From positions 64,001-128,000 of the IMG/VR virus record IMGVR_UViG_3300038300_000071: 64,000 nt of DNA; one strand, 5' to 3'. Shown here piece after piece: positions 4,628 to 24,532 of the stretch (within the stretch, counting starts at the first letter, position 1; every line of letters starts with the position of its first letter). The notes beneath the pieces were generated by a model that saw only the letters and a list, made by a program, of their open reading frames with translations, did no database searches and was not told the DNA's origin. Source of the DNA: a virus. Its lineage: Duplodnaviria; Caudoviricetes. The position numbers and the translations under genes were made by a program.

Positions 4628-4821
4628 CGATGGATAACTCAATTGGTATGAAGTGAAGAACAGAAAGATATTCTAGAATGTCTTCCTGTAAGTAGCGTAA
4701 TTATTAGATTACTTTTTAGTAGGGTTTGATTCCCTAACTTGATTCGTCAAGATTGTAATCTAATTAGAGTGCCTAGAGTTGTATCTAGGAAGTGGAGGTT
4801 CGAGTCCTTCTCCATCGGCCA
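4628..4821 (+). ncRNA. tRNA-like RNA with ~118-nt structured insertion in the D-loop
   Basis: CGATGGA/TCCATCG acceptor plus G-CCA; ACTC/GAGT D-stem split by 4648-4765; non-canonical CCTAG-AGTTGTAT-CTAGG arm; GGAGG-TTCGAGT-CCTTC T-arm. Confidence 0.7.
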
Positions 4822-4847
4822 TTTTAAAGAAAGAAAAGAATATGTAT

Positions 4848-4922
4848 GCTCCGGTAGCTCAGTTGGATTAGAGCATCTGCCTTCTAAGCAGAAAGTCCTT
4901 GGTTCGAGTCCAAGTCGGAGTA
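4848..4922 (+). tRNA. tRNA-Arg(TCT)
   Basis: Cloverleaf; TCTGC-CTTCTAA-GCAGA anticodon arm. Confidence 0.93.
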
Positions 4923-4946
4923 CTTTTAAGAAAGTAAGGAAAGAAG

Positions 4947-5117
4947 ATGGAATATGTTATTAAGACAGGAATTTATTACTTTATGTTTTCAGGATTGCAC
5001 ACATGTACTACAAATTGTATAGAAGGTGCAACTAAGATTACTAATATAAATCATCTGAATAAAATGCTGAAATATGTCAGTACGAAATTTGAAGATGTGT
5101 CTTACGAGAAGGTGTAG
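4947..5117 (+). CDS. Small hypothetical protein (56 aa)
   Basis: ATG with AAGGA RBS, open to TAG; read by hand, not in the ORF track. Confidence 0.5.
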   Translation: MEYVIKTGIYYFMFSGLHTCTTNCIEGATKITNINHLNKMLKYVSTKFEDVSYEKV

Positions 5118-5308
5118 AAATGAAAGAGATTTATCACTGTTCTTTGACCCGTATGGAAGATCTTTTGAATGCAGTAGATGAAGGATGTTTGTATGTGTAT
5201 GATACTTTCCCCGCATCGTCTTGGAGGGAGAAAGAAGATGAAAGAATGAGAGGGAAGCTGGAAAGACACTTTTCTGGAAAAGGAGATTGATGTAAAGAAT
5301 AAATTTAA

Positions 5309-5382
5309 GGGATTTTAGCTCAGTTGGTTAGAGCGGCGCTCTCATAAAGCGAAGGTCGTGGGTTCGAGTCCCTCAAGTCCCA
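5309..5382 (+). tRNA. tRNA-Ile2(CAT) (lysidine type; Met not excluded)
   Basis: GCGCT-CTCATAA-AGCGA arm; GGG-start acceptor and overall Ile2-like sequence; the operon leader uses ATA codons. Confidence 0.8.
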
Positions 5383-5440
5383 CTTAGCAAGTGAAATGAT
5401 TAATGTGTGATAAAGAATATTATAGATGGAAAGTAGTTCT

Positions 5441-5517
5441 GGGGTTAGAAGGTTTATAAGAAGTAAAAAACCGCATGCGGCATATTTCTTATCTGAGTTC
5501 AAGTCTCAGTAGCTCCA
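5441..5517 (+). ncRNA. Miniature tmRNA-like (tRNA-like-domain-only) RNA
   Basis: GGGGTTA/TAGCTCC acceptor with G3.U70 and discriminator A; no D-stem; 10-bp ATAAGAAGTA/TATTTCTTAT stem; CTGAG-TTCAAGT-CTCAG T-arm. Confidence 0.6.
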
Positions 5518-5519
5518 TT

Positions 5520-5649
5520 AGTTCTAAGAGTACGATGGAAAGTACAGGCAGTGAGTAAGTCCTAAGATGCAGAAGTCGCGAACTGCTGAGAATTCTAGCG
5601 AACGATTCCCCGAAAGGGATGGATATGGGTTCAAATCCCATTGGAACTA
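5520..5649 (+). ncRNA. tRNA-like RNA with expanded anticodon and variable regions
   Basis: AGTTCTA/TGGAACT acceptor; GTAC/GTAC D-stem; GGCAGT/ACTGCT stem with 29-nt loop; ATGGG-TTCAAAT-CCCAT T-arm. Confidence 0.6.
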
Positions 5650-5823
5650 TTAAGGCACTATTACAGGCCTTGTGCGCACAAAAGCGATTAGACTATTATG
5701 CTCTGTCGCAGTATAGGAAGTTATGAAATGGGATTATGGCGTCGTATCATGATTTTAGGAAGTAATTTTTGAAATACTTATATTGCATAGCAGCGGCGGT
5801 TGTAAGCGGTATAAGTATATTTT

Positions 5824-5897
5824 GGCGATGTAGCTCAATTGGCTAGAGCACTGCCCTGTCACGGCAGACGTTGCGGGTTCGAATCCCGTCATTGCCG
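5824..5897 (+). tRNA. tRNA-Asp(GTC)
   Basis: Cloverleaf; CTGCC-CTGTCAC-GGCAG anticodon arm. Confidence 0.93.
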
Positions 5898-5919
5898 CTT
5901 TTAAGTAAAGGAAGGTGTT

Positions 5920-6102
5920 ATGGAAGTTAAAGCAGAAAGATTCTATAGGGATCAGATACGATTGGGACTTTATAAGCTACCAAGTGGATGGTTGGATAAG
6001 TTTGATAGAATATATGGCTCTGTCGAAAAAGTACCTGTTGATAAGTTGGATTCAGCTTTAGGTTTGGTAGAGAGAAGTTTGTTAAGTTTAAAAATTAAAT
6101 AG
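5920..6102 (+). CDS. Hypothetical protein
   Basis: ORF with GAAGG RBS. Confidence 0.55.
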   Translation: MEVKAERFYRDQIRLGLYKLPSGWLDKFDRIYGSVEKVPVDKLDSALGLVERSLLSLKIK

Positions 6103-6114
6103 TAGGTTGAGTTT

Positions 6115-6666
6115 ATGTTTGTAGAATCAGGTGATCATGTTCATAGTTTTGGTTGGATTGGAGTTCCTATTGAAGGAACTCAAAAGGATATGCTGTTGTC
6201 GATAGCGAATAAGATAGACAAGGAAGATTTATTCGAAGAAGACGATGATACTGGAATCGAAGAAGATAGCCATGTGACAGTTCTTTATGGAGTTCATGAT
6301 AAACAGAATTTCAAAGTAAAGGCATTGCTTGGATCTGTATTGCAAATGAATGGAGAGCTTGTAGGACTTCATATATTTGAAAATGAAAGATATGATGTTT
6401 TGGTCGTTAAGGTTGAAAGCGAAGACCTGAAAGATTTAAACAAAAAGTTGAAAGACGGTCTTAAGTATACTAATGACTATCCAGAATATAAGGCACATGC
6501 TACAGTCGCATACCTGAAGTCTGGAACAGGGAAAAAGTATGTAGAAGATTTTAAGAAAGTCGATTGCGTGTTTGATAGAGTTTTTTACAACAATTCTGAC
6601 AATACGCACAACGAGAAGATTGAGCTTAAGAAGAATGACATTGATGAAATGTTGAAAGGAATTTAA
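6115..6666 (+). CDS. 2H phosphoesterase, Acb1/T4 gp57B-like (possible anti-CBASS)
   Basis: Two HxT motifs: HVTVLYG and YPEYKAHATVAY. Confidence 0.75.
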   Translation: MFVESGDHVHSFGWIGVPIEGTQKDMLLSIANKIDKEDLFEEDDDTGIEEDSHVTVLYGVHDKQNFKVKALLGSVLQMNGELVGLHIFENERYDVLVVKVESEDLKDLNKKLKDGLKYTNDYPEYKAHATVAYLKSGTGKKYVEDFKKVDCVFDRVFYNNSDNTHNEKIELKKNDIDEMLKGI

Positions 6667-6676
6667 AAGTATTCAT

Positions 6677-6748
6677 TGCTCTGTGGTGTAATTGGTAACA
6701 CTTTGCCTTTTGACGGCAACATTACAGGTTCAAGCCCTGTCGGAGCAT
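6677..6748 (+). tRNA. tRNA-Gln(TTG)
   Basis: TGCTCTG/CGGAGCA acceptor; TTGCC-TTTTGAC-GGCAA anticodon arm. Confidence 0.9.
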
Positions 6749-6766
6749 TATAATAAAAGGAATAAG

Positions 6767-6988
6767 ATGATTGTTAATGTCAGATTTGAAAAGAATGAAG
6801 AATATAAAGAGTTTGAAGTTGAGATAGGTGAAAATGAGCATGTGGAAAATACAAACACTATACCGATCAAATTATATTCCGAGATAACGCAAGATCAATT
6901 AGACTCTGTGGTTGGAAAAGCAAATAAAATGCTGGAAGGAACTGATTGGGATTCTCCAGATGCTTATTTCGTAAATTACTGGCTATAA
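6767..6988 (+). CDS. Hypothetical protein
   Basis: Start moved to ATG 6767 (AAGGA RBS), downstream of tRNA-Gln. Confidence 0.6.
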   Translation: MIVNVRFEKNEEYKEFEVEIGENEHVENTNTIPIKLYSEITQDQLDSVVGKANKMLEGTDWDSPDAYFVNYWL

Positions 6989-7059
6989 GTAGAGCGTTGG
7001 AAGCGTTTGCAATTTGTGTAAGAGCTGTTAAAGTAAGATGAAATTAAATAAAAGAAAGG

Positions 7060-7839
7060 ATGGCTATGATACTATTGCATGGTGACTGTTTAAAGGAGAT
7101 GGAAAATATTGAGAGTGGATCTATTGATTTGGTTTTGGCAGATCCACCTTACGGAACGACAAATTGTAAGTGGGATTCAATAATTCCACTTGGGCCAATG
7201 TGGCAGCAATTGAAAAGAATTGTTAAGCCTACGGGCGCTATCGTTTTAATGGGGAATGAACCATTTACTTCAATGTTAGTATGTAGTAATATTAACGAAT
7301 TTAAGTATCGCTGGGTGTGGGAGAAAAATAAATCTACAGGCTTTTTAAATGCTAAGAAACAGCCTTTAAGATGCATTGAAGATGTTTGTGTTTTCTATAG
7401 AAAGCAATGCACTTATAATCCTCAGAAGACATTTGGCCATAAGCCTGTCAATAGTTTCAAGAAGAATACTGGCGATGGCGAAACAATGGGAAAGACAAAG
7501 ATTGGCATTTCCGGTGGTGGTCAAACTGACAGATACCCTAAAAACATTATTAAGAATATCAGAGTGATGAATAATGATGGAAGTCATGGCAAAAAGACTA
7601 ACGCAACTCAGAAGCCAGTAAAGCTTATGGAGTATCTTATCAAAACTTATTCTAACGAGAATGATAAAGTGTTAGATTTTGCCATGGGAAGCGGTACAAC
7701 TGCGATTGCTTGTCTAAACACAAAGAGAAGCTTTATCGGTATAGAACTTGAAGCAGATGGCTTTAAAGATGCCTCAGAAAGAATAGAGGCTCATGCTAAG
7801 ACAATTGATTCTGCCCCAAAAGTATCGTATATTTTATAG
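7060..7839 (+). CDS. DNA methyltransferase (N6-adenine/N4-cytosine, beta class)
   Basis: DPPY catalytic motif, TQKP, VLDFAMGSGTT SAM-binding motif. Confidence 0.92.
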   Translation: MAMILLHGDCLKEMENIESGSIDLVLADPPYGTTNCKWDSIIPLGPMWQQLKRIVKPTGAIVLMGNEPFTSMLVCSNINEFKYRWVWEKNKSTGFLNAKKQPLRCIEDVCVFYRKQCTYNPQKTFGHKPVNSFKKNTGDGETMGKTKIGISGGGQTDRYPKNIIKNIRVMNNDGSHGKKTNATQKPVKLMEYLIKTYSNENDKVLDFAMGSGTTAIACLNTKRSFIGIELEADGFKDASERIEAHAKTIDSAPKVSYIL

Positions 7840-7905
7840 AAGTATTGTAAAATCAAAAGGAGTGTGAACTTATGAAGATCTAATAATCAACATAAGGAGT
7901 CCCAG

Positions 7906-8283
7906 ATGGGGAATACATATAAGAATAAATCACATACTGGATATTATAGGCGTTGCAGAGGACATAAGAAGGCAAGGATAAACAAGGCGAGGAGTATTCC
8001 TCCTGATGGTTGGGCTGAAGAAAGATGGCCTTGTAATATAAACAATATACCTTGGATTATCGTTGAGAGAATGTTTAATGATGGTTGGCCTGAGTATGAA
8101 GCTTTTGAAAGAGTAATGAGAAAGTGCAGGATCAGCAGGAGTAAGGCATCGGATATAACGAAGTTTTTCTACCATAGAATGCGATGGTATAGAAAAGGAA
8201 AGCCTGAACCTGATAATAAAACTCCAGAAGGATATTTAAAAGTTTGGAGAATAACAAGAGTTAAGGTAAATAAATACAAATAA
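7906..8283 (+). CDS. Hypothetical basic protein
   Basis: ORF with TAAGGAG RBS. Confidence 0.6.
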   Translation: MGNTYKNKSHTGYYRRCRGHKKARINKARSIPPDGWAEERWPCNINNIPWIIVERMFNDGWPEYEAFERVMRKCRISRSKASDITKFFYHRMRWYRKGKPEPDNKTPEGYLKVWRITRVKVNKYK

Positions 8284-8670
8284 ATAAAGGGTCATGCTGA
8301 AAAGTGTGGCCTTTTATATTTCAATAGGAATGGATATGGCTGTAGATTGCTTGGGAAGAGATATGAAGGTTGGAGATTGGGTTTCTTATACAAACACATG
8401 GCAGGCTGCTGATGTGAGAGTTGGTAAAATATCGATAATAAGAGATAAGCGTAAAGATGGAAAGCCAAGAGTTCATGCAGAGATCACAATATCTGGAATA
8501 GAGGGATATTGTACAAACGTAAATAGAAGTGGATATATATGCTTAATGGAGGCTCCCTTTGACAAGTTGAAAGGAGCGCTTGGAGTGGGAGATAAGTATA
8601 AGATGTAGTTGTATATTTTTTCAATATTTGGGAAGTATTGGAATGTATAACAACAGAAAGGGGTAGTAAG

Positions 8671-9342
8671 ATGTTAAAAGGAATAAGTTTAAATATACTT
8701 TTTGCCTTCTTCATAGCAATGTTCAGCTCTTCTGCTGGAATTATCACTCTTGACTCGGATGCAAGTCTTTCCAGTGTGGGAAATTACACTAAAACCAAAA
8801 TAAAGAAACCGAAGAGCGAGGTGTTTACTTATGGCTCTGGGATCGCTAGTGTATTCAAAACTGGAAAGCCGAAAAAGGGAGATGCGACACCAGAGAGCGA
8901 ATCAAGAGCTTATTTTGTTTTCGATTTATCCGAGGTGACTACCGAGATACTGAATGCTAGTATTGATTTCAGCGGCAGCGGTGATATTTTGAACTTTGAG
9001 TTTTTTCAAGTTAAATCAAATATAGAAGATTTGCGAGATGGGGTCGGAAGCGGTGCTCAGTTTGAGGAGTTTTATGATGACTTAGGGAAAGGCGTAAGAT
9101 ATGCAAATGGTAAAAGCACTAGCTTTAACTTCGATTCAGCATTGATTGATATGAATAATACCAGAAGTCTAGGAAGTTCTTTATTTGCCTTTGGTGTAAA
9201 GAGTAAAGATAAGAAATACTTCCTCTTTGAAAATGTCAAACTAACCTTGACGACTGCGGTTCCTGAGCCTAGAGAAATCCTTCTTCTCCTGACAGGTGTC
9301 ATTTCAGTGTTTCTCCTCCGCCGTAAGAAATCATTGGCTTAA
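8671..9342 (+). CDS. PEP-CTERM sorting-domain surface protein
   Basis: N-terminal signal peptide; C-terminal VPEP, transmembrane helix, RRKK. Confidence 0.88.
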   Translation: MLKGISLNILFAFFIAMFSSSAGIITLDSDASLSSVGNYTKTKIKKPKSEVFTYGSGIASVFKTGKPKKGDATPESESRAYFVFDLSEVTTEILNASIDFSGSGDILNFEFFQVKSNIEDLRDGVGSGAQFEEFYDDLGKGVRYANGKSTSFNFDSALIDMNNTRSLGSSLFAFGVKSKDKKYFLFENVKLTLTTAVPEPREILLLLTGVISVFLLRRKKSLA

Positions 9343-9425
9343 GTGTTATTGAGATATTTCCTTGGTATATTTTTTCAATATTTAGGGGTTGTTGACAGAT
9401 ATTAACTACAACAAGGGATGAAAAG

Positions 9426-9866
9426 ATGTTAAAAGGGATGGTAATGTTTATATTGGTTGCATTTATTGCTTCCAGCTTAACTTCATGCGGTATTATGCAG
9501 ATCACTCCGGGTCTTACTGGAAGCGGTGTTTATGAGCTAGGAGAAATAGGTGGTGTTAAGTATTACACTGTTCACTCTAGCCATATTGCAGGCCCAAATC
9601 AGACTGTAATGGTTTCACACGACACGCTTAAAGAAGGAGCAAGGCCTGTTAATATCGCTGTTAATGGCGGAGAAGGAATTGGCAAGTCTATTGTGGGAGC
9701 AGTTGGAAGTGTTGGATCTTCTTATGTGTTCGGAAAGTCTTTAAAGCCATCGAGTGAGAGCTCTTCTGTTGATGTGTCGGGAGGAAATGCTGCAGGAGGC
9801 GATGGAGGTAGTTCAACTTCCAGAGGTGGAAACGCAACTTCCAGAAATACCAACAATAATAGATAG
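9426..9866 (+). CDS. Lipoprotein
   Basis: Hydrophobic signal peptide with LTSC lipobox; Gly/Ser-rich tail. Confidence 0.7.
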   Translation: MLKGMVMFILVAFIASSLTSCGIMQITPGLTGSGVYELGEIGGVKYYTVHSSHIAGPNQTVMVSHDTLKEGARPVNIAVNGGEGIGKSIVGAVGSVGSSYVFGKSLKPSSESSSVDVSGGNAAGGDGGSSTSRGGNATSRNTNNNR

Positions 9867-9884
9867 AAATTAAATTAAAGAGTC

Positions 9885-9913
9885 AAAAGGCCCCACCTTG
9901 GTTGGGGCCTTTT
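9885..9913 (+). terminator. Intrinsic terminator
   Basis: AAAAGGCCCCA-loop-TGGGGCCTTTT. Confidence 0.8.
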
Positions 9914-10252
9914 GTTTGAACCTGTTTAATGGGTGATAATTGCACTACAAATACTTAGAGTGAAAACAGCGGATATTTAGACATATTGAGAAAATTATAG
10001 GATGAAAAACCTGTATGTAAGATGTTAGTTTGCAGTTAATTGTAATCATATCAGATTTTCCTAAAAATTTCCTATTATTATAAGTAGTATTCATACCGTC
10101 CAAGGCCTGCGCCATTTATTAGCTCCATATCTTTCGTAAAAAAATAAGAAATCTAGGACACTGAGATAAAATATATCAATAGACAAATTAAAATCCTCAA
10201 CAACGCAGTGCATGTTAGATTTAATAAGAGAAAATTCGTACAGGAGAGAAGA

Positions 10253-11068
10253 ATGCAGTTGATAAAAAAAACAAACGAACACGTTAGAAGATTAAAATCT
10301 CGACTTACTGGGATTGATTATCAGCTTGTCTTTGGTGGGGCTGTCAGAGATTCATTAATGGAAAGAAGTTACCAAGACGTAGATTTATTTTTCACAGACA
10401 GGACAAAATATATAAACACTGTGGGAAGATTGTGTGAAGAGGGATATTCGATAGTAGAGTTGTGCAGGAGAAAGTGGTCAAAGAATTTCATTTGTTTGTT
10501 CGGCAGGTATGAGAAAGAAAACCGTTTTAATAAATCGGGAAAAGAATTTGTAGATGTGATGTTGTTTGATTGCACAGAGGAAGAGTTAATTGCAGATTTC
10601 AAGTTGAGTTTTGATTTTGGTGTAAACGTGTGTTATATGAAAGATGGCGAAATTTATGCAAGTGACAGGTGCTTAAGTGAAATAGAGGATGGTGGTGTTT
10701 TAGAATTAGTGTCTGATAAAATTTCAATAGGGAACTGTATTGTAAGGGCTGAAAAGTTTCGAAGCAGAGGTTTTAAAGTCGGATCTAGTGTGATTGGATA
10801 TATTATAAAAGAAATAGAGCTGATGGAGGATTCTCCAGAGGATTACGAAAGTTCGAGATATATTAAGGTTCATGGTGGATATGGAACCTATTGTAATATA
10901 AAAGGCAAAAAGTTATATAGAGATTTTTTTAAACTAATTGACGAGGATACATTAATATTGGCAATGATGAGCAGTAGTGAAAAGATATTAGATTATTCTA
11001 AAAATAATCACAATAAGAAAATCAATAAGAAAGGTGTAGTTTCTAAAATAAGGAATTTGTTTGCATGA
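10253..11068 (+). CDS. Nucleotidyltransferase, CCA-adding/poly(A) polymerase head-like
   Basis: FGGAVRD...DVDLF and FDF motifs; ATG 10253 has an AGGAG RBS. Confidence 0.7.
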   Translation: MQLIKKTNEHVRRLKSRLTGIDYQLVFGGAVRDSLMERSYQDVDLFFTDRTKYINTVGRLCEEGYSIVELCRRKWSKNFICLFGRYEKENRFNKSGKEFVDVMLFDCTEEELIADFKLSFDFGVNVCYMKDGEIYASDRCLSEIEDGGVLELVSDKISIGNCIVRAEKFRSRGFKVGSSVIGYIIKEIELMEDSPEDYESSRYIKVHGGYGTYCNIKGKKLYRDFFKLIDEDTLILAMMSSSEKILDYSKNNHNKKINKKGVVSKIRNLFA

Positions 11069-11943
11069 AATACAACGCAGAGGTTATAAGTATAGAGGAG
11101 GTCAGTGAAAATCTAAGAATATTTAGAATAAAGCCTGATTTCCCTGTCAATAGTTATGAAGCTGGCCAATATACCACTTTGGGGTTAGATGGGAGCGAAG
11201 CTAGAGTACCAAGAGCGCAAAAGGAAGAGTTGGCCGAGGGAATGCTTAATAAAGTCCAAAAGAGGGCTTACAGCATATCTTCTCCGGTTTTCAAAGAGGA
11301 TCATGATTTGGTAGATCATAATGAATTGGATTATTTAGAGTTCTATATTTCATTAGTACCAGTTGGGCACAAGAGTTATCCTCCTTATTTGACTCCGAGA
11401 TTGTTTATGCTTAAGGAAGGCGATAGAGTAAACATGGGAAAGAAGATAACGGGTAATTATCTTTTAGGAGATGTAGATGATAAAGATACGATTATATTTA
11501 TATCTACTGGAACTGGATTGGCTCCTCATAACCCGATGTTGTCAAAGTTGCTAAGAGATGGGCATGAGGGGAAAATAGTTATAGTTGAGTGTAATCGTTA
11601 TAGCTGTGAGTTTGGCTATAGTACGCAGATAGAAGAAATTGTCGAATCTTATCCTAACGTGTTTCATGAAGTAATGATTACATCAGAGCGCGAAGATTAT
11701 TACATACAGAATTTATTTTCTGAGAATGTTTTAGAGGATAAGTATGATTTCAAGATTGAGGCGAAGAATACAAAAGTGTATCTTTGCGGAAGTCCTAGAA
11801 TGATTGGCGCTCCTAAGTTGGTAGATGGCAAAGAAGTATTTGACAACAAAGATGGAATGGTTTCACTCCTTCAGTCAAAGTATGGATTAAAGTCTAATTA
11901 TGAAAATGACGAAGGTCAGATTAATTTTGAGAAGTATTGGTAA
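11065..11943 (+). CDS. fpr: Ferredoxin-NADP+ reductase
   Basis: GQY, RAYSISS, STGTGLAP, YLCGSP and C-terminal EKYW motifs. Confidence 0.9.
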   Translation: MKYNAEVISIEEVSENLRIFRIKPDFPVNSYEAGQYTTLGLDGSEARVPRAQKEELAEGMLNKVQKRAYSISSPVFKEDHDLVDHNELDYLEFYISLVPVGHKSYPPYLTPRLFMLKEGDRVNMGKKITGNYLLGDVDDKDTIIFISTGTGLAPHNPMLSKLLRDGHEGKIVIVECNRYSCEFGYSTQIEEIVESYPNVFHEVMITSEREDYYIQNLFSENVLEDKYDFKIEAKNTKVYLCGSPRMIGAPKLVDGKEVFDNKDGMVSLLQSKYGLKSNYENDEGQINFEKYW

Positions 11944-12240
11944 GAGTGTAAATGGGAGTAGAAACATGGAGAGAGTAGAATTGAAGTTGAAAGATTGTGA
12001 TTTAGATGCAGTTGATCTAGATGGTGGTTGTTGGGGCTTTGGAAGTATGTATGGCAATGATTGGCATATATATCATGTAGATGATCATCTTAACGAAACC
12101 TCCTATGCCTTCCCTGAGTGGTTAAACGATTTGATTAATGCTAAATACAATCAAGGATCGGATGATAAAGTGAGCGAGATAAGAAAGGCTTTAAATCTGT
12201 GAGAAGGTGGAAGTTTTAAATTTAACATATTTTAAATAAA

Positions 12241-12282
12241 AAAACCCTTTTTAGTGAGTTATTAACTAAAGAGGGTTTTTTT
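12241..12282 (+). terminator. Intrinsic terminator
   Basis: AAAACCCTTTTTAGT...ACTAAAGAGGGTTTTTTT. Confidence 0.65.
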
Positions 12283-12687
12283 GTGGACAAAATGACAGTA
12301 TTAAATGGGATAGCGGCCATCAGCAGCATGAATGATAAATTCCAATATATAATAAATTTAGCGAAAGCGGCAGATGGTCTAGATGATTCAGAGAAGGTTC
12401 ACAAATATAAGATAAGAGGATGCAATTCCAAATTGTGGTTAGTTCCTAAGTTTGAGAATGGTCTTGTTGAGTTCAGAGTGGATGGTGAGGCGATGATACC
12501 TAAAGGAATAGGAATTATATTAGCCTTGGCTTATTCTGGGATGACGCCTGATGAAGTTATTGGAAAAGATCCTATCTTTTTAACTCAGTACGGGATAACT
12601 CATCACTTGACAGCCAGTCGTAGAAACGTCCTCAGTGGATTATACAAACAGATGAAATATTATGCTTCTGCTTATAAGAACATGTAA
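12283..12687 (+). CDS. sufE: SufE family Fe-S cluster sulfur acceptor
   Basis: IRGCNSKLWL, DGEAMIPKG and HLTASRRN motifs. Confidence 0.85.
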   Translation: MDKMTVLNGIAAISSMNDKFQYIINLAKAADGLDDSEKVHKYKIRGCNSKLWLVPKFENGLVEFRVDGEAMIPKGIGIILALAYSGMTPDEVIGKDPIFLTQYGITHHLTASRRNVLSGLYKQMKYYASAYKNM

Positions 12688-15356: not shown

Positions 15357-15360
15357 CTAT

Positions 15361-15975: not shown

Positions 15976-16074
15976 AAGATGTTGAAGACTAAGAAATAGA
16001 GTGTTAAATTAATATAGTGGAGTTGAAAATTATAGGACTGCCATTATAGTAATTTAGAAATAAGGAAGTTGGCT

Positions 16075-16722: not shown

Positions 16723-16795
16723 GCCAGTGTAGCTCAGTTGGTAGAGCAGGTCACTTGTAATGATCAGGTCAACGGTTCGAATCCGTTCACTGGCT
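16723..16795 (+). tRNA. tRNA-Thr(TGT), second copy
   Basis: GCCAGTG/CACTGGC acceptor; GGTCA-CTTGTAA-TGATC arm. Confidence 0.93.
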
Positions 16796-16818
16796 TTAGG
16801 AAAGAAGGAATAGATTAA

Positions 16819-17046
16819 GTGGTTATAGATGTAGAGATTGATAATTGTTGTGGTGGAGGTCATTGTGGGCCAGTACCCGGATATACTTATGAATGTCCAG
16901 TATGTGAGAAGAGCACGATGTGTAGGACTAGGAATGGACGTGCTCTTGATGTTGATGAAAGTTTAACTTGCTCATTATGCAAGGAAGAAATAACAGTTGT
17001 AGAAGTGTTGAGTGATGGAACATTCGATTTTGATTTTGAATTGTAA
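16819..17046 (+). CDS. Small zinc-finger protein
   Basis: CPVC and CSLC pairs. Confidence 0.55.
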   Translation: MVIDVEIDNCCGGGHCGPVPGYTYECPVCEKSTMCRTRNGRALDVDESLTCSLCKEEITVVEVLSDGTFDFDFEL

Positions 17047-17059
17047 GTAAGTTTATTAT

Positions 17060-17169
17060 GCCGGAGTAGCTTAATTGGTTAGAGCATAAGTGAAGCGCAT
17101 CATCGGAGACTAGTTAATCCTTTGTTGCTAGTATCTTAAAGGTTGCAGGTTCAAGTCCTGCCTCCGGCA
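17060..17169 (+). ncRNA. tRNA-like RNA with 44-nt segment replacing the anticodon loop
   Basis: Perfect GCCGGAG/CTCCGGC acceptor; canonical D- and T-arms; TAAG/CTTA stem enclosing 44 nt. Confidence 0.75.
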
Positions 17170-17191
17170 CTTTTTAGGTAATAAGTTTTAT

Positions 17192-17294
17192 GCGGGAGCC
17201 TGTTGGTTAGGGCTTAGTGAAGAGTATTTTGATGCACCTGGTTAAATCATAATGCAAGTAGCTTTGTACGGGGGTTCGAATCCCTCCTTCTGCT
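17192..17294 (+). ncRNA. tRNA-like RNA with extended central arm
   Basis: GCGGGAG/CTTCTGC acceptor; GGGGG-TTCGAAT-CCCTC T-arm; GTGAAGA...AAGTAGC motif. Confidence 0.6.
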
Positions 17295-17350
17295 TTGGTT
17301 TTAAAGTATAGGCGAATTAAATAAGATATTTTGGGAAAGGGTGAAACTGA

Positions 17351-17986
17351 ATGATTAGTCATAAACATAAGTTTATTTTTTCGCATGTTCCCAAGGTTGC
17401 TGGAACATCGATAGAGATTTCTTTAAGGCCATATGATGATTCTGGCTTTAAGTGGGGATTAAGGAATGATGATTTGGGAAATGCGATTGCAAATCATAAG
17501 GATTATTTTGTATTTGGATTTGTTAGAAATCCTTATGACAGGTTGGTATCGGCGTGGAAGATGTCGAAGGTAAATGGAAAGCATGATATGCCATTTAGGG
17601 ATTATGTGACGTGTGTTGGCAAATTCCTATCTCATGATTATGAAACGTTGATAAAGTTGTACAGAAGTAATAAGTGTTGGAAGAATGGATATCCTTTGAC
17701 GATGAAGGATGCGGGATTTTTAGACCCTGTTCATGATAAGTATCATACTGTATATCAGTGGAACTTTACTTATGGTTGTAAGTTTGTAGGAAGGTATGAG
17801 CGTTTGGATGATGATTTTAAATTGGTATGTGAAGTATTAAAGTTGAATGTTGATGATCTTCGGAGGGGAAATAAGTCTGGGGATGGCAGCAATTACAAAG
17901 AGCATTATGATAAAAATTTGCAATCTCAGGTGTATGAAATGTACAAGCAAGATTTCTTAATGTTTGGTTATCAATACAAGCTGTAG
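17351..17986 (+). CDS. Sulfotransferase family protein
   Basis: FSHVPKVAGTSI, FVRNPYDRLVS, VGRYE motifs. Confidence 0.88.
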   Translation: MISHKHKFIFSHVPKVAGTSIEISLRPYDDSGFKWGLRNDDLGNAIANHKDYFVFGFVRNPYDRLVSAWKMSKVNGKHDMPFRDYVTCVGKFLSHDYETLIKLYRSNKCWKNGYPLTMKDAGFLDPVHDKYHTVYQWNFTYGCKFVGRYERLDDDFKLVCEVLKLNVDDLRRGNKSGDGSNYKEHYDKNLQSQVYEMYKQDFLMFGYQYKL

Positions 17987-18045
17987 TTTGTGCTTAGATA
18001 ATTTTTTTATAATTCTCCAGAAATTATAAAAGGAGATTTAAAAAA

Positions 18046-18210
18046 ATGAAATACGAATGTTTTGATTGCAGTTCAATATTTGACATAGATGCATCCAATG
18101 ATGGAAGTTGTCCAAGTTGTGGAAGTTCTAATGCGGCGCGGTATAATAATGACTATGCTAGATATGATGATGAAGATGAAGAGAGTTATAAAGATGAGTA
18201 TGATGACTAA
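18046..18210 (+). CDS. Small zinc-ribbon protein (54 aa)
   Basis: YECFDC...CPSCGS; AGGAG RBS; read by hand. Confidence 0.65.
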   Translation: MKYECFDCSSIFDIDASNDGSCPSCGSSNAARYNNDYARYDDEDEESYKDEYDD

Positions 18211-18216
18211 GTTTGA

Positions 18217-18291
18217 ACCTCTGTGGGCAAATTGGCAAAGTCGCTCCGTTTAGGCCGGAGAGTTTTCTGGGTTCGAGTCCCAGCAGAGGTA
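18217..18291 (+). tRNA. tRNA-Leu(TAG), short variable loop
   Basis: ACCTCTG/CAGAGGT acceptor; CTCCG-TTTAGGC-CGGAG arm. Confidence 0.88.
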
Positions 18292-18565
18292 TTAAGGAAA
18301 CAATAAGAGGGATGGTGCTGTGAGTGATTGGGGCGATAGAGATGATGACGACTGGTTTAAGGATCGTCAAAGGCAAGGATTAAAGGAGGAGTTAAGCAGG
18401 CCGCAAAAGCTTTGCAAATGGCTGTTGGAAAAAACATTTGTCATGGCTTTTATTGCATTTGTGTTATCGTTTGCAGTGGGAAGTTTAATACCGCTGTGTG
18501 TATTTTTTGCAGTAGAGTCGGCTGCTTTGTTTTATTTGTTAGTATTTAATTAATGTAAAGGCGGT

Positions 18566-19108
18566 ATGGTTATGATCAGAAGGATAAATTTCCTTGGTGG
18601 AGCTTGCACTGGAAAGTCAACCATGGCCGCTGGTATATTTTCAAAGTTAAGAAAGAATGGATTCAGCGCAGAACTTACAGGAGAGTTTGTAAAGGATTGG
18701 GCTTATACTGGCAGAGTGGCTACTAAATTTGACAGCCTGACAACTTTTTCAAATCAGCTTTACAGAGAAGAGCTTCCACTGAAGAGTGGGATTGACTTAG
18801 TGGTCAATGACAGTCCTATATTGTTGAGTATAATTTATGCAAAAAATGATAGCGTGGGAATAGAAGAGGCAATGCTTCAAATTCTCAATAAGTTTGAGAG
18901 TTATTATCCTTCATTGAATATATTTCTAGAGAGGGATGGTATTGATTATGAGAATGAGGGAAGGTATTCCGGTTTAGACGTCGCTGAAAGAATAGATGGT
19001 GAAATATTAAATGCTCTAAGTTCAAATGGCATCGAGTATAAGCTGATGAAAAGCTTAGATGATAGTGCGGTATATGAATATATAATGAATGAATTAAATA
19101 AAAATTAA
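18566..19108 (+). CDS. P-loop ATPase/kinase (NadR/AAA_28-like)
   Basis: GGACTGKST Walker A; DSPILLS; YENEGR. Confidence 0.8.
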   Translation: MVMIRRINFLGGACTGKSTMAAGIFSKLRKNGFSAELTGEFVKDWAYTGRVATKFDSLTTFSNQLYREELPLKSGIDLVVNDSPILLSIIYAKNDSVGIEEAMLQILNKFESYYPSLNIFLERDGIDYENEGRYSGLDVAERIDGEILNALSSNGIEYKLMKSLDDSAVYEYIMNELNKN

Positions 19109-19156
19109 ATAATCTAATGTTAGTGTTAATTGTTAGTTATTTAATGGGATTGGAAA

Positions 19157-19789
19157 ATGGAATCTTCAAATGTAGCACATCGTAAGACTTTAGTTCTTAA
19201 TCGTAATTTTAGCCCAATAAGTATAGTAGATAGTTTGGAAGCCATATGTAAGGTTTACACGGGAGCGGCAAAAGTTCTAGGCTCTGACTGGCAGAAGTAC
19301 GACTTTACCGATTGGGTAGACAATTGGGAAGACATTGCAGAGATGACTGGATGCGAAGTGGATTCAGGAAGATTAATAAATGGAACTTTCATTTCTCCTG
19401 AAATAATAATACTGGAAGTATACAAGGGTCATCACAGGCCTCATTCTAATTTCTCAAGAAGAAATATATTCATAAGGGATGAGAATACGTGTCAATACTG
19501 CAGTTACCATTCAAACGATAGAAAGAAATTCAATTTAGATCATGTTGTTGCAAAGTCGAAAGGTGGATTGGCGACATGGGAAAATATAGTTTTGTCATGT
19601 TTTCCTTGCAACAGAAAGAAAGCAAGTATGACTTTGAAGGAGGCTAATATGAAATTGTTAAGAGAGCCTAAGAAGCCTTTGTTTAATCAGCCAGAGTTTG
19701 GATTTGGTTCGAATAAGAAAGTTTCTACTCCCAAGAGTTGGGATGACTTTGTAGGAAGTCTATATTGGAATACAACCTTGAGGGACTGA
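19157..19789 (+). CDS. HNH endonuclease
   Basis: SRRNIFIRD..CQYC, DHVV..SKGG..WENIVLSCFPCN. Confidence 0.92.
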   Translation: MESSNVAHRKTLVLNRNFSPISIVDSLEAICKVYTGAAKVLGSDWQKYDFTDWVDNWEDIAEMTGCEVDSGRLINGTFISPEIIILEVYKGHHRPHSNFSRRNIFIRDENTCQYCSYHSNDRKKFNLDHVVAKSKGGLATWENIVLSCFPCNRKKASMTLKEANMKLLREPKKPLFNQPEFGFGSNKKVSTPKSWDDFVGSLYWNTTLRD

Positions 19790-19928
19790 TTCAAGGATTG
19801 GGATGCGTTGAGTTTTAATCATAATGAAAGGTGTTTTTGATAATGAATGTGAATTAGTGAAGGTTTAGTTTCTCCCGATGTTTTAGATTTATTAGATTAT
19901 ATAATGAACGAAGTTTAACAGATAGAGA

Positions 19929-20186
19929 TTGCCAGTAATGCATCATATTGAAATAGAGTTGTTACCGTGTCCGTTTTGTAGAAGTAAAGATATTGAGCTT
20001 GTGAGTATTGATTGGAGGAAGGGGGTTAGGTGCAACTCTTGCCATGCCCAAGGCCCAAAAGTTCAAACGCCTCCAGATGTCGCATTTAGCAATGAAGCGG
20101 CTGTAAGATGGAATGAATATGGAGTAAATATAGTGGGAGTTAAGAAAAAAAATAATAAAAACATTGAAAAAAAGCAAATTGCATAG
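19929..20186 (+). CDS. Lar (restriction alleviation)-like zinc-finger protein
   Basis: LLPCPFC...CNSCHAQGP...AAVRWN. Confidence 0.7.
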   Translation: MPVMHHIEIELLPCPFCRSKDIELVSIDWRKGVRCNSCHAQGPKVQTPPDVAFSNEAAVRWNEYGVNIVGVKKKNNKNIEKKQIA

Positions 20187-20267
20187 AAATTTTTAACTTC
20201 TTTGTTGTAGTATATATGGATGTCCGTGGAAGCGGATAAAAATATAAATAAACAAGGAAGAATAAAA

Positions 20268-20648
20268 ATGCAAAAAACAGCAAATGCGGAAAAGTTAGCG
20301 GAAGCAGGAAGAAAGTCTTGGATAACTAGAAGAGAGAATGAACTAAAGCGTAAGCGCAGTGAAGCTGGCAAGAAGGCGGCTCTTACTCGTAAAGCCAATC
20401 GTGATGCTCTTCTTAAAGAAGAAGCTAAAGTTGCTCGTGCAACTAAGCGAAAGTCTACATCTAAGGCTAAGAGTTCTACACCTAAAGCTAAGTCAACTAC
20501 CGCTAAGACAAAAACTTCAAAAGCTAAGAAGGCTGTGGCAAAGAAGGTTGAAGTTTCACCTTTGACTAAGAATCAGAAGTTGAAACTTCAGCGTAGCGAA
20601 GCTGCTAAGAAATCATGGGCAACAAGAAGAAAGAACGCAAAGAAGTAA
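20268..20648 (+). CDS. Lys/Ala-rich histone-like DNA-binding protein
   Basis: Three (S/A)EAx(K/R)Kx(W/A)xTR(R/K) repeats and a KAK-rich linker. Confidence 0.6.
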   Translation: MQKTANAEKLAEAGRKSWITRRENELKRKRSEAGKKAALTRKANRDALLKEEAKVARATKRKSTSKAKSSTPKAKSTTAKTKTSKAKKAVAKKVEVSPLTKNQKLKLQRSEAAKKSWATRRKNAKK

Positions 20649-20979
20649 AAAGTACTCTAGGGGGAAATACTCCTAGAAGTGCTGCACTGGGGGGAAGAAC
20701 GACATTTACTGAATACAAATGTCCGATTTGCTCAGAAACAGATGCGTACTACTACATTGTAGATGCCGCAGGGTCGAGAGGTAACTCTTGGCTTTGCGGC
20801 ATTTGTGGTTCTAGGAATTCGCCTTATTTGTCCGATTTGCCATTCGGATGCTTAGCAACAGGCATTAAGAAAGGTGTCTGAGATTATTAGAATTAAATAC
20901 AGGATCATTAATATGCGTAGAAATCTCTATGGTATATGATTATAATTGATTCTTAATCTTAAAAGTTAGGTAAATTAAT

Positions 20980-21735
20980 ATGCGGAAGAAGAAGAGAGCG
21001 GAAGAATCGTCTTTAAAGAATACTGGTGGAAAAAATAATCCTGTTGGAGAAGACTGGAAAAAGCCTTGGTGTACTTTTAAAGGCAATGATAACGGACTTA
21101 AACAGAAGCAATATTGCGATTTAATAGGTAGCAGCGAAATAACTATATGTGCTGGCCCAGCTGGAACGGGGAAATCATATATCTCAATATACAAGGCGTT
21201 GGATTTGCTATGGAAGAAGGGTAATGGATATGATAAGATAACTTTATTTAAGCCAGTAGTTGAAGCTGATGAGAAGATAGGATTCCTACCTGGCAGCGTC
21301 GAAGATAAGATTTCCGTATATTCAAGTTCTTCTTTGAGCATAATTGACAAGATAATCGGGAAAGAGAAGAGATTGGAATTGGTATCAATGGGAATTATTG
21401 AATGTAGAGCTTTGGCCTACATAAGAGGAGATAGTTTTGATCATACCATTCTAATTCTAGAAGAGGGGCAGAACTCTAGCCCAAGGCAGATGAAAACGTT
21501 ATTGACGAGAATTGGTGAAAAGACTAAATATATTATCAATGGAGATATGGATCAGTCTGACAGATTCAAAGATTACACAAAAACAGGCCTTTATGATGTG
21601 GTTAATAGGCTAAAGGGAATTGAAGGTGTTGGAACGTTTGAGTTTGAAATAGGCGACATCGTTAGGAATCCGATTATCAGTAAAATTCTTGAAAGGTATG
21701 AAGATGACTATGATGATGGAAGAATGTTTGAATAA
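20980..21735 (+). CDS. phoH: PhoH-like ATPase
   Basis: GPAGTGKS, IGFLPG, AYIRG, EEGQN, LTRIG, GDMDQSD motifs. Confidence 0.93.
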   Translation: MRKKKRAEESSLKNTGGKNNPVGEDWKKPWCTFKGNDNGLKQKQYCDLIGSSEITICAGPAGTGKSYISIYKALDLLWKKGNGYDKITLFKPVVEADEKIGFLPGSVEDKISVYSSSSLSIIDKIIGKEKRLELVSMGIIECRALAYIRGDSFDHTILILEEGQNSSPRQMKTLLTRIGEKTKYIINGDMDQSDRFKDYTKTGLYDVVNRLKGIEGVGTFEFEIGDIVRNPIISKILERYEDDYDDGRMFE

Positions 21736-21759
21736 TATTTAAAAAAAAGAAAAAGCAAG

Positions 21760-21788
21760 TGGACAATATTAGTTTCATGCGCTATAAT
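21760..21788 (+). promoter_or_regulatory. sigma70-type promoter
   Basis: TGGACA-17 nt-TATAAT. Confidence 0.7.
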
Positions 21789-21859
21789 AAAGACATAAGC
21801 TTCAATATATAAAGAATCAGGCAAAATAAAAAAGTGATTAATTGAGAGGCTTATGTTTT

Positions 21860-21946
21860 GGATATATAGCTCAGCGGCCAGAGCAGAAGGATTCTAACCC
21901 TTTGGTAGTCGAAAGGCAGGCGCAGGTTCGATTCCTGTTATATCCT
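21860..21946 (+). tRNA. Atypical tRNA with long variable arm; possible amber suppressor (CTA), anticodon register ambiguous
   Basis: GGATATA/TATATCC acceptor; normal D- and T-arms; GAAGG-ATTCTAAC-CCTTT arm; GAAA-capped variable arm. Confidence 0.6.
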
Positions 21947-22164
21947 TTTCTTATATTCATTGCGGCGACGCTAGTACATGCGGACTAAAGCGAACGGTGG
22001 AGCACCTCTAAAGTGTTCTTGACAAGCAAGGAAATGTACTGCTTGTCAAATATAAGATCGAGGCTTGATTTTCTTGTTGCGGAAAATCTGATCGCAAGCG
22101 GTAGAAGTCCGAAGTAACATTATTTTTTAACGTAAGTAAACAAAAGCAAAGTAAGGAAAAGAAA

Positions 22165-22269
22165 ATGAAAAAAGTATTCTTGTAGATCAAAAGAGGCCCT
22201 CCGGCATTAATTCGGTGTTTAAAAGTTTTTAGAGTTGAATTAATTAAATATATCGGAGAAGAAAAATGA
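22165..22269 (+). promoter_or_regulatory. Amber-interrupted uORF MKKVFL*IKRGPP...EEK (putative translational attenuator)
   Basis: AAGGA RBS; TAG at 22183-22185; RGPP follows after two codons; final TGA overlaps the ATG at 22266. Confidence 0.6.
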
Positions 22270-22634
22270 TTACTATTGAAAAAAATGAAACAGAAGTAAG
22301 TGAAATAGAAGTAAACAAGATTAGAGCAGTTAAGGCTAACTTGAAGACGAAGATTAAAGACCAAGCTGTTCTTCAGAAGAGAGCCAAGTCTAATAATAAA
22401 GAAGTACAGCGTGAAGTAACTAAGTGTGGATGGAATTCAGATCTTTACAAGAGAAGAATGATCAATTTGTCCTACGACATTACGCTAACCCACATTCTTT
22501 ATAATCGCCTAAGAAATAGACCTCCTCATACAGGATCTGTCGAAAGCGATAATTCATACATGTCTACGTATGGAGATTACTCAAATATAAAAAATGATCT
22601 AGAGTCTAGATTCTCAATAAGCTTGGGAGTTTAA
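22266..22634 (+). CDS. Hypothetical protein upstream of the Pth2-like gene
   Basis: GGAG RBS; one nucleotide separates it from the next gene. Confidence 0.7.
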   Translation: MITIEKNETEVSEIEVNKIRAVKANLKTKIKDQAVLQKRAKSNNKEVQREVTKCGWNSDLYKRRMINLSYDITLTHILYNRLRNRPPHTGSVESDNSYMSTYGDYSNIKNDLESRFSISLGV

Positions 22635-22635
22635 G

Positions 22636-22962
22636 ATGGAATCTAGAATGTATATCTTAGTCAATAAGTCGTTGACCAAATCTCAAAGAATACCTCAATC
22701 ATCTCATGCAGTGGCAGAATTTATGCATACTCATGGGTCTGACAAAAAGGTTAAGACTTGGGTGGAAGATCACAGAACGATGGTTGTCCTTGAATCTGAC
22801 TTTAGCAATATGGATGACATATTAAATACAGTCGAAAAGGATGGATATAAGGCCAGATCTTTTAGAGAGCCTGATTTGAACGATGTGGTGACTGCTATTG
22901 CTTTTGAACCTATGACAAGGCAGGAAGGCGGAAAGTATTTTTCAAGATTAAAATTGGCGTAA
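22636..22962 (+). CDS. Peptidyl-tRNA hydrolase 2-like protein
   Basis: MYILVNKSL..SQ..PQSSHA, MVVL, FREPDL...TAIA pattern. Confidence 0.75.
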   Translation: MESRMYILVNKSLTKSQRIPQSSHAVAEFMHTHGSDKKVKTWVEDHRTMVVLESDFSNMDDILNTVEKDGYKARSFREPDLNDVVTAIAFEPMTRQEGGKYFSRLKLA

Positions 22963-24303
22963 TGAAGCATTGGAGAGGCTTTACGGCCTCTCTTTTCTTT
23001 TTAAAGGAGTAAAGATGAAAAAAGAAAATTATGATAAGTTGGTAGAAGAATTTGTCGATCTTGAAGATTTGGTTTATGGTCATATTGAAAGGTATAAGGA
23101 GTTCTATGGCGATGGGTGTTGCCATGTCGGTATGGATTCTTTTGATGAATGTACTGTAGAACTTAGCGGAGTTGAGACATGGAGGTATGGAGGTCGAGAG
23201 GAGCATTTCTTAACTTTAGAAGTTGATGATCTGTTTAGCGAAGAGAGAATGAATGTTAAGCTTAAAAAGAGAAGTGATGAGATTATAAAAGAGAAGAATA
23301 AGAAGAAGAGAGCGGAGCAAAGAAAAAAGAGGGAAAAGATTAAAGCTGCTCGTAAGTTGCTAAAGGATAATAACGAATTATGAATGTAAGAGAGCTGATA
23401 AACGAGTTGAAGGGATGCGATCCTGATGCAATAATTTGCACTGGGGGAAATGAGTCTATAAATTATATAGAGTGTTTACCTTCTTATTATGATGGAAGAC
23501 TTATGCATGTAATGCAGGATGAATGTGGAAACCCTGTTAAGATATCGATGAGGAGTGGTGGATCAAAGGTCAAAATGCATTCGTATGACATTGAGGATGT
23601 TATTTTTGATAATCCAAGAATAGAAGTTGAAACTGGGGATGGCTTTAACTCATCTTTAAGTACTTATGCTGAGTGGAGACAGGAAGGTTTAGATTATGAA
23701 AGAAATGCAAGAAAAAAGTTTTATCATTACGGTTATTTAGAAAAGTATGACGACATGTTGTTTATATGGGATGTGGTAGAATTATGAGGAGAAGAGATAT
23801 GAAGAAGGAATTTATAAAAGTAAAGACGGATGGCTTTGAGAATCTAACAGAGGGTAAGATTTATTCAGTTTTGTCTTGCGATGTGTGGGATATGGCCCTA
23901 GTTTATCTTTTTTTTAATGATGTGGGGAAGTTGGTTCAGCATCATGACTGGGAGGATTATTGGGAAGATAACTTTGAGTTAATTAACGAGGAGATGACAG
24001 ATAGGGAGGTGATGATATTTAACAGTGGAATATCTCACGGACTTTGTATAGCAAAGACAGATGTTGACGAAGAGTATGGAATGAAATGCTTTGAGAGGGG
24101 GAAGAAGAAGCGCAAGAGTCTGAAGGAGAAAAAAGGATATCTTTGGTTGGACGATGGGGTTGAGAAGATAAGGAGTAATTTAAATAGTCTTTACAGTGAG
24201 AAGACAGATCATTTCTATGACAGTGGTGATAAAGATGGTATAGTTTGATTTAGAAGTTGAAAAATAAATAATGACGTGTATTGTAATGTAAGAAAAAATA
24301 TAA

Positions 24304-24532
24304 GCCTTGGTAGCTCAATTGGCGTAGAAGGTGAATTATGTATTCGGTGTTTAATAATTGCAATTGTTAATCGGAGAATATATATGAAGCATCTGCACTC
24401 CAACTAATATAAAGGTTTAAGAGTTGGTTATAGAGCGCTGAATTGTGAAGACTGTGAGAGAAAGGCCTTTTAAAGTATCTTATAGAAGTAGCAAATATTC
24501 AGAGGTTTGAGGTTCGAACCCTCACCAAGGCA
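24304..24532 (+). ncRNA. tRNA-like RNA with insertions in both D-loop and anticodon loop
   Basis: GCCTTGG/CCAAGGC acceptor; GCTC/GAGC D-stem split by ~107 nt; CTGAAT/ATTCAG stem enclosing 53 nt; TGAGG-TTCGAAC-CCTCA T-arm. Confidence 0.72.

Follow-up and report, generated by a model that had tools for sequence, protein, structure and literature searches.

A Putative Loop-E-Type Module Conserved in Four tRNA-Like Loci of an Uncultured Phage

Introduction

Large phages carry many odd tRNA-like genes, which annotation pipelines skip or label as pseudogenes. What such genes encode is the question raised here by five loci between positions 4628 and 24532 of a stretch of 64,000 nucleotides (the window), which comprises bases 64001–128000 of the 202-kb IMG/VR phage record IMGVR_UViG_3300038300_000071; the record is 62% complete. 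The loci are named after their first nucleotide (e4628, e5520, e17060, e17192 and e24304). An initial annotation, made from the letters alone, had taken all five as tRNA scaffolds with large structured insertions and had joined them into one family through the strands GUGAAGA and AAGUAGC. In this work four of the five were found to share a covarying helix-loop-helix module, and we tentatively favour the view that they encode retained, non-decoding RNAs.

Oversized phage tRNA genes with unexplained inserts are already published: the tRNA genes of Lak megaphages contain conserved, unclassified "enigmatic" introns (Devoto et al. 2019, Nat Microbiol; PMC6784885; 10.1101/356790). As far as searched, the module itself appears to be new, and so do its occurrence in two different cloverleaf arms and the evidence that two or more of its carriers are unable to decode.

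Results and Discussion

A Module Shared by Four tRNA-Like Loci

The window holds 18 T-loops of the form GGTTCRANYCC, five of which belong to the named loci and are not called as tRNA by ARAGORN; one further match without a tRNA call, at 32733, is located within a gene and was set aside as chance. A pairing 7-bp acceptor stem and a T-arm are present in all five loci. The scaffold proposed in the initial annotation (acceptor stem and T-loop) was thus recovered throughout, whereas the inclusion of e5520 in the module family was not upheld. The four module carriers, which retain acceptor stem, D-stem and T-arm, are listed below together with their copies of the module and the scores obtained with R1, a covariance model of the module.

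4628–4818, + strand: e4628, tRNA-like element with acceptor stem CGAUGGA/UCCAUCG, D-stem ACUC/GAGU, anticodon stem CCUAG/CUAGG and T-arm
4653–4696, + strand: module copy 1, GUGAAGA, hairpin apex UAUUCUAGAA, AAGUAGC; R1 50.8 bits
17060–17169, + strand: e17060, tRNA-like element with full cloverleaf, its anticodon arm extended by a variant module
17090–17135, + strand: module copy 2 (variant), GUGAAGC, conserved hairpin loop GACUAGUUAA, UAGUAUC; R1 46.4 bits
17192–17294, + strand: e17192, tRNA-like element with G3·U70 in the acceptor stem, reduced D-arm and T-arm
17217–17262, + strand: module copy 3, GUGAAGA, conserved hairpin loop CACCUGGUUAA, AAGUAGC; R1 56.8 bits
24304–24532, + strand: e24304, tRNA-like element, fold z = −4.1, lone and directly upstream of the DHFR gene
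24445–24492, + strand: module copy 4, GUGAAGA, hairpin with conserved interior GAAAGGCCUUUUAAA, AAGUAGC; R1 68.5 bits

The pattern GTGAAGA-N15–45-AAGTAGC has three exact matches, all on the + strand (copies 1, 3 and 4), as compared with 0.04 expected by chance; none of 100 shuffles reached three, and the exact motif was found nowhere else in the 202-kb record. The pattern search gave the same three loci as the initial annotation, with the second strand beginning at 4690, 17256 and 24486 as placed there, and the variant GTGAAGC...AGTA that had been suspected in e17060 proved to be a fourth copy (GTGAAGC...TAGTATC, copy 2).

Eleven copies of the module, comprising the four paralogues and their orthologues, were aligned with both motif strands in register (alignment A2). 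In this alignment the module consists of a lower helix, a 5 × 5 internal loop in which GAAGA stands opposite AAGUA, and an upper hairpin. Across the copies the loop reads GAAG(A/C) opposite (A/G/U)AGUA (columns 9–13 and 49–53), and G9, A10, A11 and G12 on one strand and A50, G51, U52 and A53 on the other are invariant. The upper helix is 92% paired with six of its eight pairs changed on both sides, and in the lower helix U:A is replaced by A:U at two pairs and U8·G54 by G:C in one orthologue. The covariation score of 0.599 compares with 0.25 in shuffles (0 of 500 reached the observed value) and with no more than 0.21 for slid controls. The module is sited in the anticodon arm of e17060, e17192 and e24304; in e4628 its place is a D-loop insertion after the conserved GG and not the anticodon arm. 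Because one orthologue has G:C in place of U8·G54 and the D-loop copy shares these letters, "GUG" is a feature of the module and not an anticodon. The hairpin tips given in the list are kept within orthologue groups and differ between paralogues; their reverse complements are not found in the phage record even with one mismatch, beyond trivial AT-rich matches.

GAA opposite AGUA between two helices is the signature of the loop E/sarcin-ricin (bulged-G) motif, which occurs in loop E of eukaryotic 5S rRNA, in the 23S sarcin-ricin loop and in loop E of potato spindle tuber viroid (PSTVd). The two strands had been described as opposed in this manner, and in the alignment they do face each other between two helices that are both supported by covariation. 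The module loop fits a loop E (bulged-G) fold. As in loop E, AGUA and GAA lie on opposite strands flanked by Watson–Crick or wobble pairs, and the loop is invariant and the helices covary; unlike loop E in rRNA, GAA comes first (5′) and AGUA second (3′), the loop is 5 × 5 with an extra G·A or C·U step, and the context is a tRNA arm. A kink-turn, which calls for a 3-nt bulge and then tandem sheared G·A pairs, was rejected because the 3′ strand AAGUAGC has no GA step and a Watson–Crick upper helix begins directly after the loop, and a hammerhead reading was ruled out by inspecting the strands.

A search of the phage record with R1 returned the four copies alone (46–68 bits), the next best match scoring 18.6 bits. 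Among 52 other loci R1 matched only the orthologues, and it gave no match at E below 1 in 51 loci from prokaryote genomes that contain both motifs and a T-arm. A further 18 IMG/VR loci with the pattern and a T-arm were group I introns and chance matches, with no further member among them. As far as searched, the module is confined to one clade of uncultured phages. The only Rfam family found in the window is tRNA; a permissive search of the elements (E ≤ 10) gave no credible family besides it and no ribozyme, and the tRNA family itself (RF00005, gathering score 29 bits) left e4628, e17192 and e24304 unmatched even at this threshold. A match to COG2827 RNA (19.4 bits, cut-off 49.1) at 24337–24396 on the minus strand, where the D-loop insertion of e24304 has its apex, is probably chance. 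The initial annotation had named a lack of homologues or covariation, or a match to a described Rfam family, among the grounds for refutation; homologues were found, the helices covary, and no Rfam family matches the module.

Conservation among Related Phages

The window has 36% G+C, a strong skew of G over C, and genes nearly all on the + strand. The phage encodes GroEL, a large terminase (TerL), DHFR and more than 30 tRNAs. Its GroEL is nearest to those of Lentisphaerae, Victivallales and Verrucomicrobia (~70–75% identity), and therefore the host is probably a bacterium of the Planctomycetes–Verrucomicrobia–Chlamydiae (PVC) group. Much closer relatives of the phage were located via GroEL, one 90% and one 87% identical, and were traced by walking their contigs and by a DHFR-based scan of metagenomes; the 90% relative is a contig of NCBI GCA_011087655.1. 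Loci outside the window are given below by L number and coordinates.

Orthologues of e4628, e5520, e17060 and e17192 are present in the 90% relative. Identity to the orthologue amounts to 88% for e5520, 81% for e17192, 77% for e24304 (with the module region nearly invariant) and ~70% for e17060; e4628 is conserved in its 5′ half only, module included. The module region is ~85–90% identical between orthologues. Four-fold degenerate sites of GroEL, TerL, DHFR and a sulfotransferase are 52–63% identical between the phages, and the elements are judged to be under purifying selection because their identity exceeds this level. With compensatory changes that retain several stems, the comparison bears out the earlier suggestion of selection rather than decay. 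No insert-free allele was found among the relatives, in which the whole element is either kept or wholly missing, and a comparison of the insert-free scaffolds with the tRNAs of the phage gave no close paralogue. More distant IMG/VR phages with ~52% TerL identity (G001 and G003) have ordinary tRNA arrays and no module, and the sulfotransferase gene neighbourhoods in IMG/VR led only to distant phages without tRNAs.

Structure of the Individual Module Carriers

The insertion in e4628 is ~120 nt long, and the module forms its first part. In the orthologue (L062:6999–7176) the module shows a compensatory change from C:G to U:A, and the anticodon stem covaries as well (CUCAG/CUGAG). The anticodon loop has 8 nt and is non-canonical in e4628, and has 10 nt of unrelated sequence in the orthologue. 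Both D-loop insertions, in e4628 and e24304, begin after the conserved G18 G19; the tRNA D-loop tolerates extra nucleotides at this site.

The score of e17060 as an Rfam tRNA is 51.8 bits, reached only with 44 nt skipped at the anticodon loop. Its orthologue (L034:7771–7880) is a cloverleaf with a 7-bp stem, the 5 × 5 loop and a 10-bp stem, in which the minimum-energy fold coincides with the centroid (z = −3.1), and the closing stem of the e17060 hairpin covaries with it.

In e17192 the module takes the place of the anticodon stem-loop. Compensatory changes relative to L034:7900–8004 were found in the D-stem and the hairpin, and three pairs of the module are compensatory. The G3·U70 pair is kept in both phages and the neighbouring G5·U68 becomes G:C; since G3·U70 is kept and belongs to the identity rules of AlaRS, e17192 might be charged with alanine. 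A relationship to tmRNA was rejected: e17192 scores 17.2 bits (RF00023, cut-off 47 bits), ARAGORN finds no tmRNA, and only G3·U70 and the missing anticodon arm are shared.

The locus e24304 has two insertions: its D-loop is enlarged by ~105 nt, and its anticodon arm holds the module. Its stems are the D-stem GCUC/GAGC, the anticodon stem CUGAA(U)/(A)UUCAG, the acceptor stem and the T-arm, and two further features belong to it:

24257–24284, + strand: promoter-like site TTGAAA-16-TATTGT, ~20 nt upstream of e24304
24323–24427, + strand: D-loop insertion of e24304, a long hairpin with conserved apex UUAAUAAUUGCAA and conserved single-stranded GAUAAAGGUUUAAG

Five distinct orthologues were aligned (alignment A1), and all of them lie upstream of DHFR and behind TTGAAA-16-TATTGT; hexamers and spacing are identical in L029 and L031. 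In A1, 97.9% of the cells are paired and seven pairs are changed on both sides, a result reached by 0 of 500 shuffles. Changes on both sides affect four of the seven acceptor-stem pairs and several pairs of the hairpin in the D-loop insertion, and the module hairpin has three compensated pairs. The 3′ strand of the module is GAGUAGC in three relatives.

An imperfect tandem repeat was observed at 24438–24500 (A1 columns 135–190), where UUGUGAAG is followed by UUGUAAAG, which reads CUGUGAGA in the window. CUUUACAA can pair with the one copy or the other, giving two mutually exclusive folds, both of which are kept in all orthologues. Outside the window the same phage (G000) has three further odd tRNA-like loci, at 54101–54216, 62830–62905 and 63250–63330. 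The last contains AGTAGCAAAT, as does the 3′ side of the e24304 module, and has no GTGAAGA; the cluster matching it in the 90% relative holds a normal tRNA-Tyr.

Favoured Reading and Its Rivals

A decoder would have a 5-bp anticodon stem closing a 7-nt loop with U33, kept between orthologues; none of the four module carriers encodes such an arm, and only e17060 and e24304 would gain a 7-nt anticodon loop after a hypothetical excision. The phage has an ordinary tRNA-His gene and two tRNA-Thr genes. The carriers are judged not to be decoders because the 8- and 10-nt loops of e4628 and its orthologue are unrelated, e17192 lacks an anticodon stem-loop, ordinary tRNA-His and tRNA-Thr are present, and e24304 has A73 where the phage's own tRNA-His has C73. 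We favour the reading that the four loci specify unspliced, stable, non-decoding small RNAs on a tRNA scaffold with the module as a binding platform, though our confidence in it stays a little short of even. One point against it is that the 87% GroEL relative has other genes where four of the five named elements, including three module carriers, would lie, so that these elements are dispensable.

The tRNA body would serve two ends in such RNAs. RNase P, RNase Z and CCA addition would release the RNA from the phage tRNA operons or, in the case of e24304, from a transcript of its own promoter, and the body would give stability to the released product. Both this processing and the retention of the module in the mature RNA are inferred. 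Because G18 and G19 are untouched by the D-loop insertions, the tRNA elbow could still form. The module loop may then provide a rigid S-turn platform, a docking site for one common partner that would most likely be a protein, and the hairpin tip could act as variable "cargo" or as a specificity element, because tips differ between paralogues yet are conserved in each orthologue group.

A rather unlikely reading, though the main rival, holds that the insertions are small tRNA introns, spliced by proteins or otherwise excised, like the "enigmatic" introns of the Lak megaphages. The GAAGA/AAGUA loop would mark the splice sites for an unknown endonuclease, a ligase would reseal the ends, and tRNA-His-like and tRNA-Thr(AGU)-like products would result. 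Several observations that weigh against retained RNAs speak for this rival. The module of e24304 is preceded by UUGUGA(A), which is tRNA-His-like (the loop of the phage tRNA-His is UUGUGAC), and this 5′ junction, with the insert at the canonical 37/38 site, is invariant in five orthologues. When introns are allowed, ARAGORN reads e17060 as Thr(agt) interrupted by a 37-nt intron, the excision would leave the 7-nt loop CUAGUAU, kept as CUAGUAC in the L034 orthologue, and the Rfam tRNA score of e17060 is 51.8 bits. Conserved unclassified introns in megaphage tRNAs are on record (10.1101/356790; PMC6784885), and a gene related to 2H phosphoesterases and LigT lies within the tRNA operon (6115–6666). 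Members of the EndA, RtcB and RNA ligase families (PF01974, PF01139, PF09414) were not found in the 202-kb record, which is incomplete as stated above; splicing genes could be located in its missing part or in the host. Other observations speak against splicing. Among the fixed splice registers tried, none yields a 7-nt anticodon loop in both e24304 and e17060, and exact removal of the module leaves UUAAAUA in e24304 and no loop in e17060. The anticodon loop of e4628 would stay at 8 or 10 nt and non-conserved, e17192 has no anticodon arm to restore, and two separate excisions would be required in e24304. A bulge-helix-bulge arrangement is missing, the sole 3-nt bulge (AAU, in e24304) being on the wrong side of its helix; U8·G54 covaries as a structural pair; the portion of Lak intron Table S6 covered here contains neither GTGAAGA nor AGTAGC; e24304 lacks the C73 found in the phage's own tRNA-His; and the phage has ordinary tRNA-His and tRNA-Thr genes already. 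On balance the comparative evidence leans towards retained non-decoding RNAs over splicing. That the GAAGA/AAGUA loop is the recognition mark of a novel protein-dependent excision from bacterial or phage tRNAs, at the anticodon loop as well as the D-loop, we consider distinctly unlikely; were it so, the genes would be split tRNAs maturing via a splicing route not described in bacteria.

Two other readings received little credence. One regards e24304, at least, as a cis-acting leader or switch of the DHFR operon, in which two exclusive folds would control the processing or expression of an mRNA starting at the promoter-like site. The conserved promoter-like site upstream, the lack of a terminator between e24304 and DHFR, and the position kept in five relatives agree with it, and the fold preferred by RNAalifold is an alternative one (GCUG/UAGC plus UUGUGAAG/CUUUACAA), 96–100% paired in all orthologues. 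The helices of this fold, however, show no changes on both sides and include an A·C mismatch in the window copy, whereas the module fold has three compensated pairs; moreover, the other three module carriers lie within tRNA arrays and not before genes, and RNase P and RNase Z would be expected to release an RNA with such tRNA-like ends. We consider this switch improbable.

Still less probable is that the loci are decaying tRNA pseudogenes with insertions that are relics, for example deletion remnants of group I intron 3′ ends. Absence of most of the elements from one close relative would suit decay, and the IMG/VR pattern scan found five tRNA group I introns (L004, L005, L039, L043 and L049) with both motifs in the same order; e24304 has AGUAGCAAAU where the L005 intron ends in AGUAGCAAG. 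These introns, which interrupt phage tRNAs (Leu-UAA and Glu-UUC among others; L005:3736–3966) at the anticodon loop, form a family with a common 3′ segment in which GGUGAAGA is followed by AGUCCAGACUACAA, a pair of hairpins and AGUAGCA(A)G. There GGUGAAGA corresponds to J8/7 together with the end of P8, and AGUAGCA(A)G belongs to the P9.0/omega-G region just ahead of the 3′ splice site. We regard the likeness to the module, in which both segments stand in the same order inside a tRNA gene, as a coincidence, because the scan had selected for both motifs and their co-occurrence reflects ascertainment, a profile built on the 3′ ends of the group I introns matches no element (best E ~3, elsewhere in the window), R1 does not match the group I loci, and the phage record has no group I intron (best RF00028 match 9.5 bits, elsewhere, against a criterion of 50 bits). 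The two motifs are, furthermore, unpaired with each other in the group I introns and paired here with flanking covariation, and conservation well above that of four-fold sites, with compensatory changes, opposes decay. The elements are not group I introns themselves: they are unmatched by RF00028 at E ≤ 10, and inserts of 44–120 nt have no P3–P8 core.

Comparison with Known Systems

As in the Lak phages, the tRNA genes described here are oversized and belong to very large uncultured phages, and their inserts are conserved, have no Rfam class and no known removal route. The Lak inserts, however, are described from Tyr, Phe, Gly and Thr tRNAs that are otherwise normal, and they lie in the anticodon region, whereas in the present phage one insert occupies the D-loop, two of the carriers are unable to decode, and a helix-loop-helix module is shared. 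Group I introns in tRNA genes differ in being ribozymes of at least 200 nt with P3–P9, as compared with elements of 44–48 nt and no group I core. The bulge-helix-bulge tRNA introns of archaea are short, occur in the D-loop as well as at 37/38, and sometimes number several per tRNA; unlike in these, no 3-4-3 bulge-helix-bulge is present here, no splicing endonuclease was found in the 202 kb, and the setting is a bacterial host.

In the tRNA cluster of phage T4, species 1 and 2 (rnaC and rnaD) are stable non-tRNA RNAs released by tRNA-processing enzymes. The RNAs proposed here resemble them by description, as small RNAs encoded among phage tRNA genes; to our knowledge, species 1 and 2 do not carry the module. 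In the engineered tRNA scaffold of Ponchon and Dardel, a structured RNA reportedly replaces the anticodon stem-loop and the tRNA body confers processing and stability. That scaffold is man-made, whereas the phage design is natural and uses the D-loop too.

e5520 and Other tRNA-Related Features

The family membership of e5520 had been proposed from AGTA...GAA, which is a loose, reversed match, and R1 does not find this locus. It is a conserved tRNA-like RNA outside the module family. A further tRNA-like element without the module lies directly upstream:

5440–5517, + strand: tRNA-like element with acceptor stem GGGGUUA/UAGCUCC including G3·U70, one long arm and T-arm
5520–5649, + strand: e5520, tRNA-like element with acceptor stem AGUUCUA/UGGAACU, D-like arm GUAC/GUAC and T-arm

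The anticodon region of e5520 is enlarged and the variable arm long; the Rfam tRNA score is 18.7 bits, and the acceptor stem shows a compensatory change from G:C to A:U relative to L062:7721–7849. In the 5440–5517 element the long arm ends in the hairpin CCGCAUGCGG and a D-arm is missing. The fold is identical in both phages (L062:7640–7717) and the block is conserved. This element resembles the tRNA-like domain of tmRNA, without a tag frame.

The gene at 6115–6666, within the tRNA operon, matches the superfamily of Acb1 and 2′-5′ RNA ligase (2H phosphoesterase) and every close relative has it at the same position. An amber-suppressor tRNA (anticodon CUA, labelled "Pyl" by ARAGORN) with a long variable arm is encoded at 21860–21946 of the window. 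The 87% relative likewise has a CUA tRNA at this place, and an 86-nt tRNA assigned as Arg(tct) stands there in the 90% relative (loci L036:13317–13389 and L034:14012–14097). Read with the standard code, reading frames appear intact. In the 87% relative the large terminase (L031:16874–19987, L032:7978–11091) has 1037 aa with an intein and a LAGLIDADG endonuclease, and that of the window has 612 aa and no intein. In another phage (G005), two adjoining tRNAs with 8-nt anticodon loops were observed at L028:5036–5185, which ARAGORN labels "???" with anticodons cttg and cttt.

Conclusions

The case described here is a small covarying family, judged to be under selection and belonging to one clade of uncultured phages, in which a tRNA body is combined with a putative loop-E-type platform and a variable hairpin tip. 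The model R1 provides a concrete, searchable signature for the module, whether it is retained or removed. If the module is excised, the genes would reveal a new kind of tRNA splicing in the bacterial world. If the RNAs are retained, as we favour, they would be a natural counterpart of the engineered tRNA scaffold and would suggest that the phage makes a ribonucleoprotein or a decoy for a host factor.

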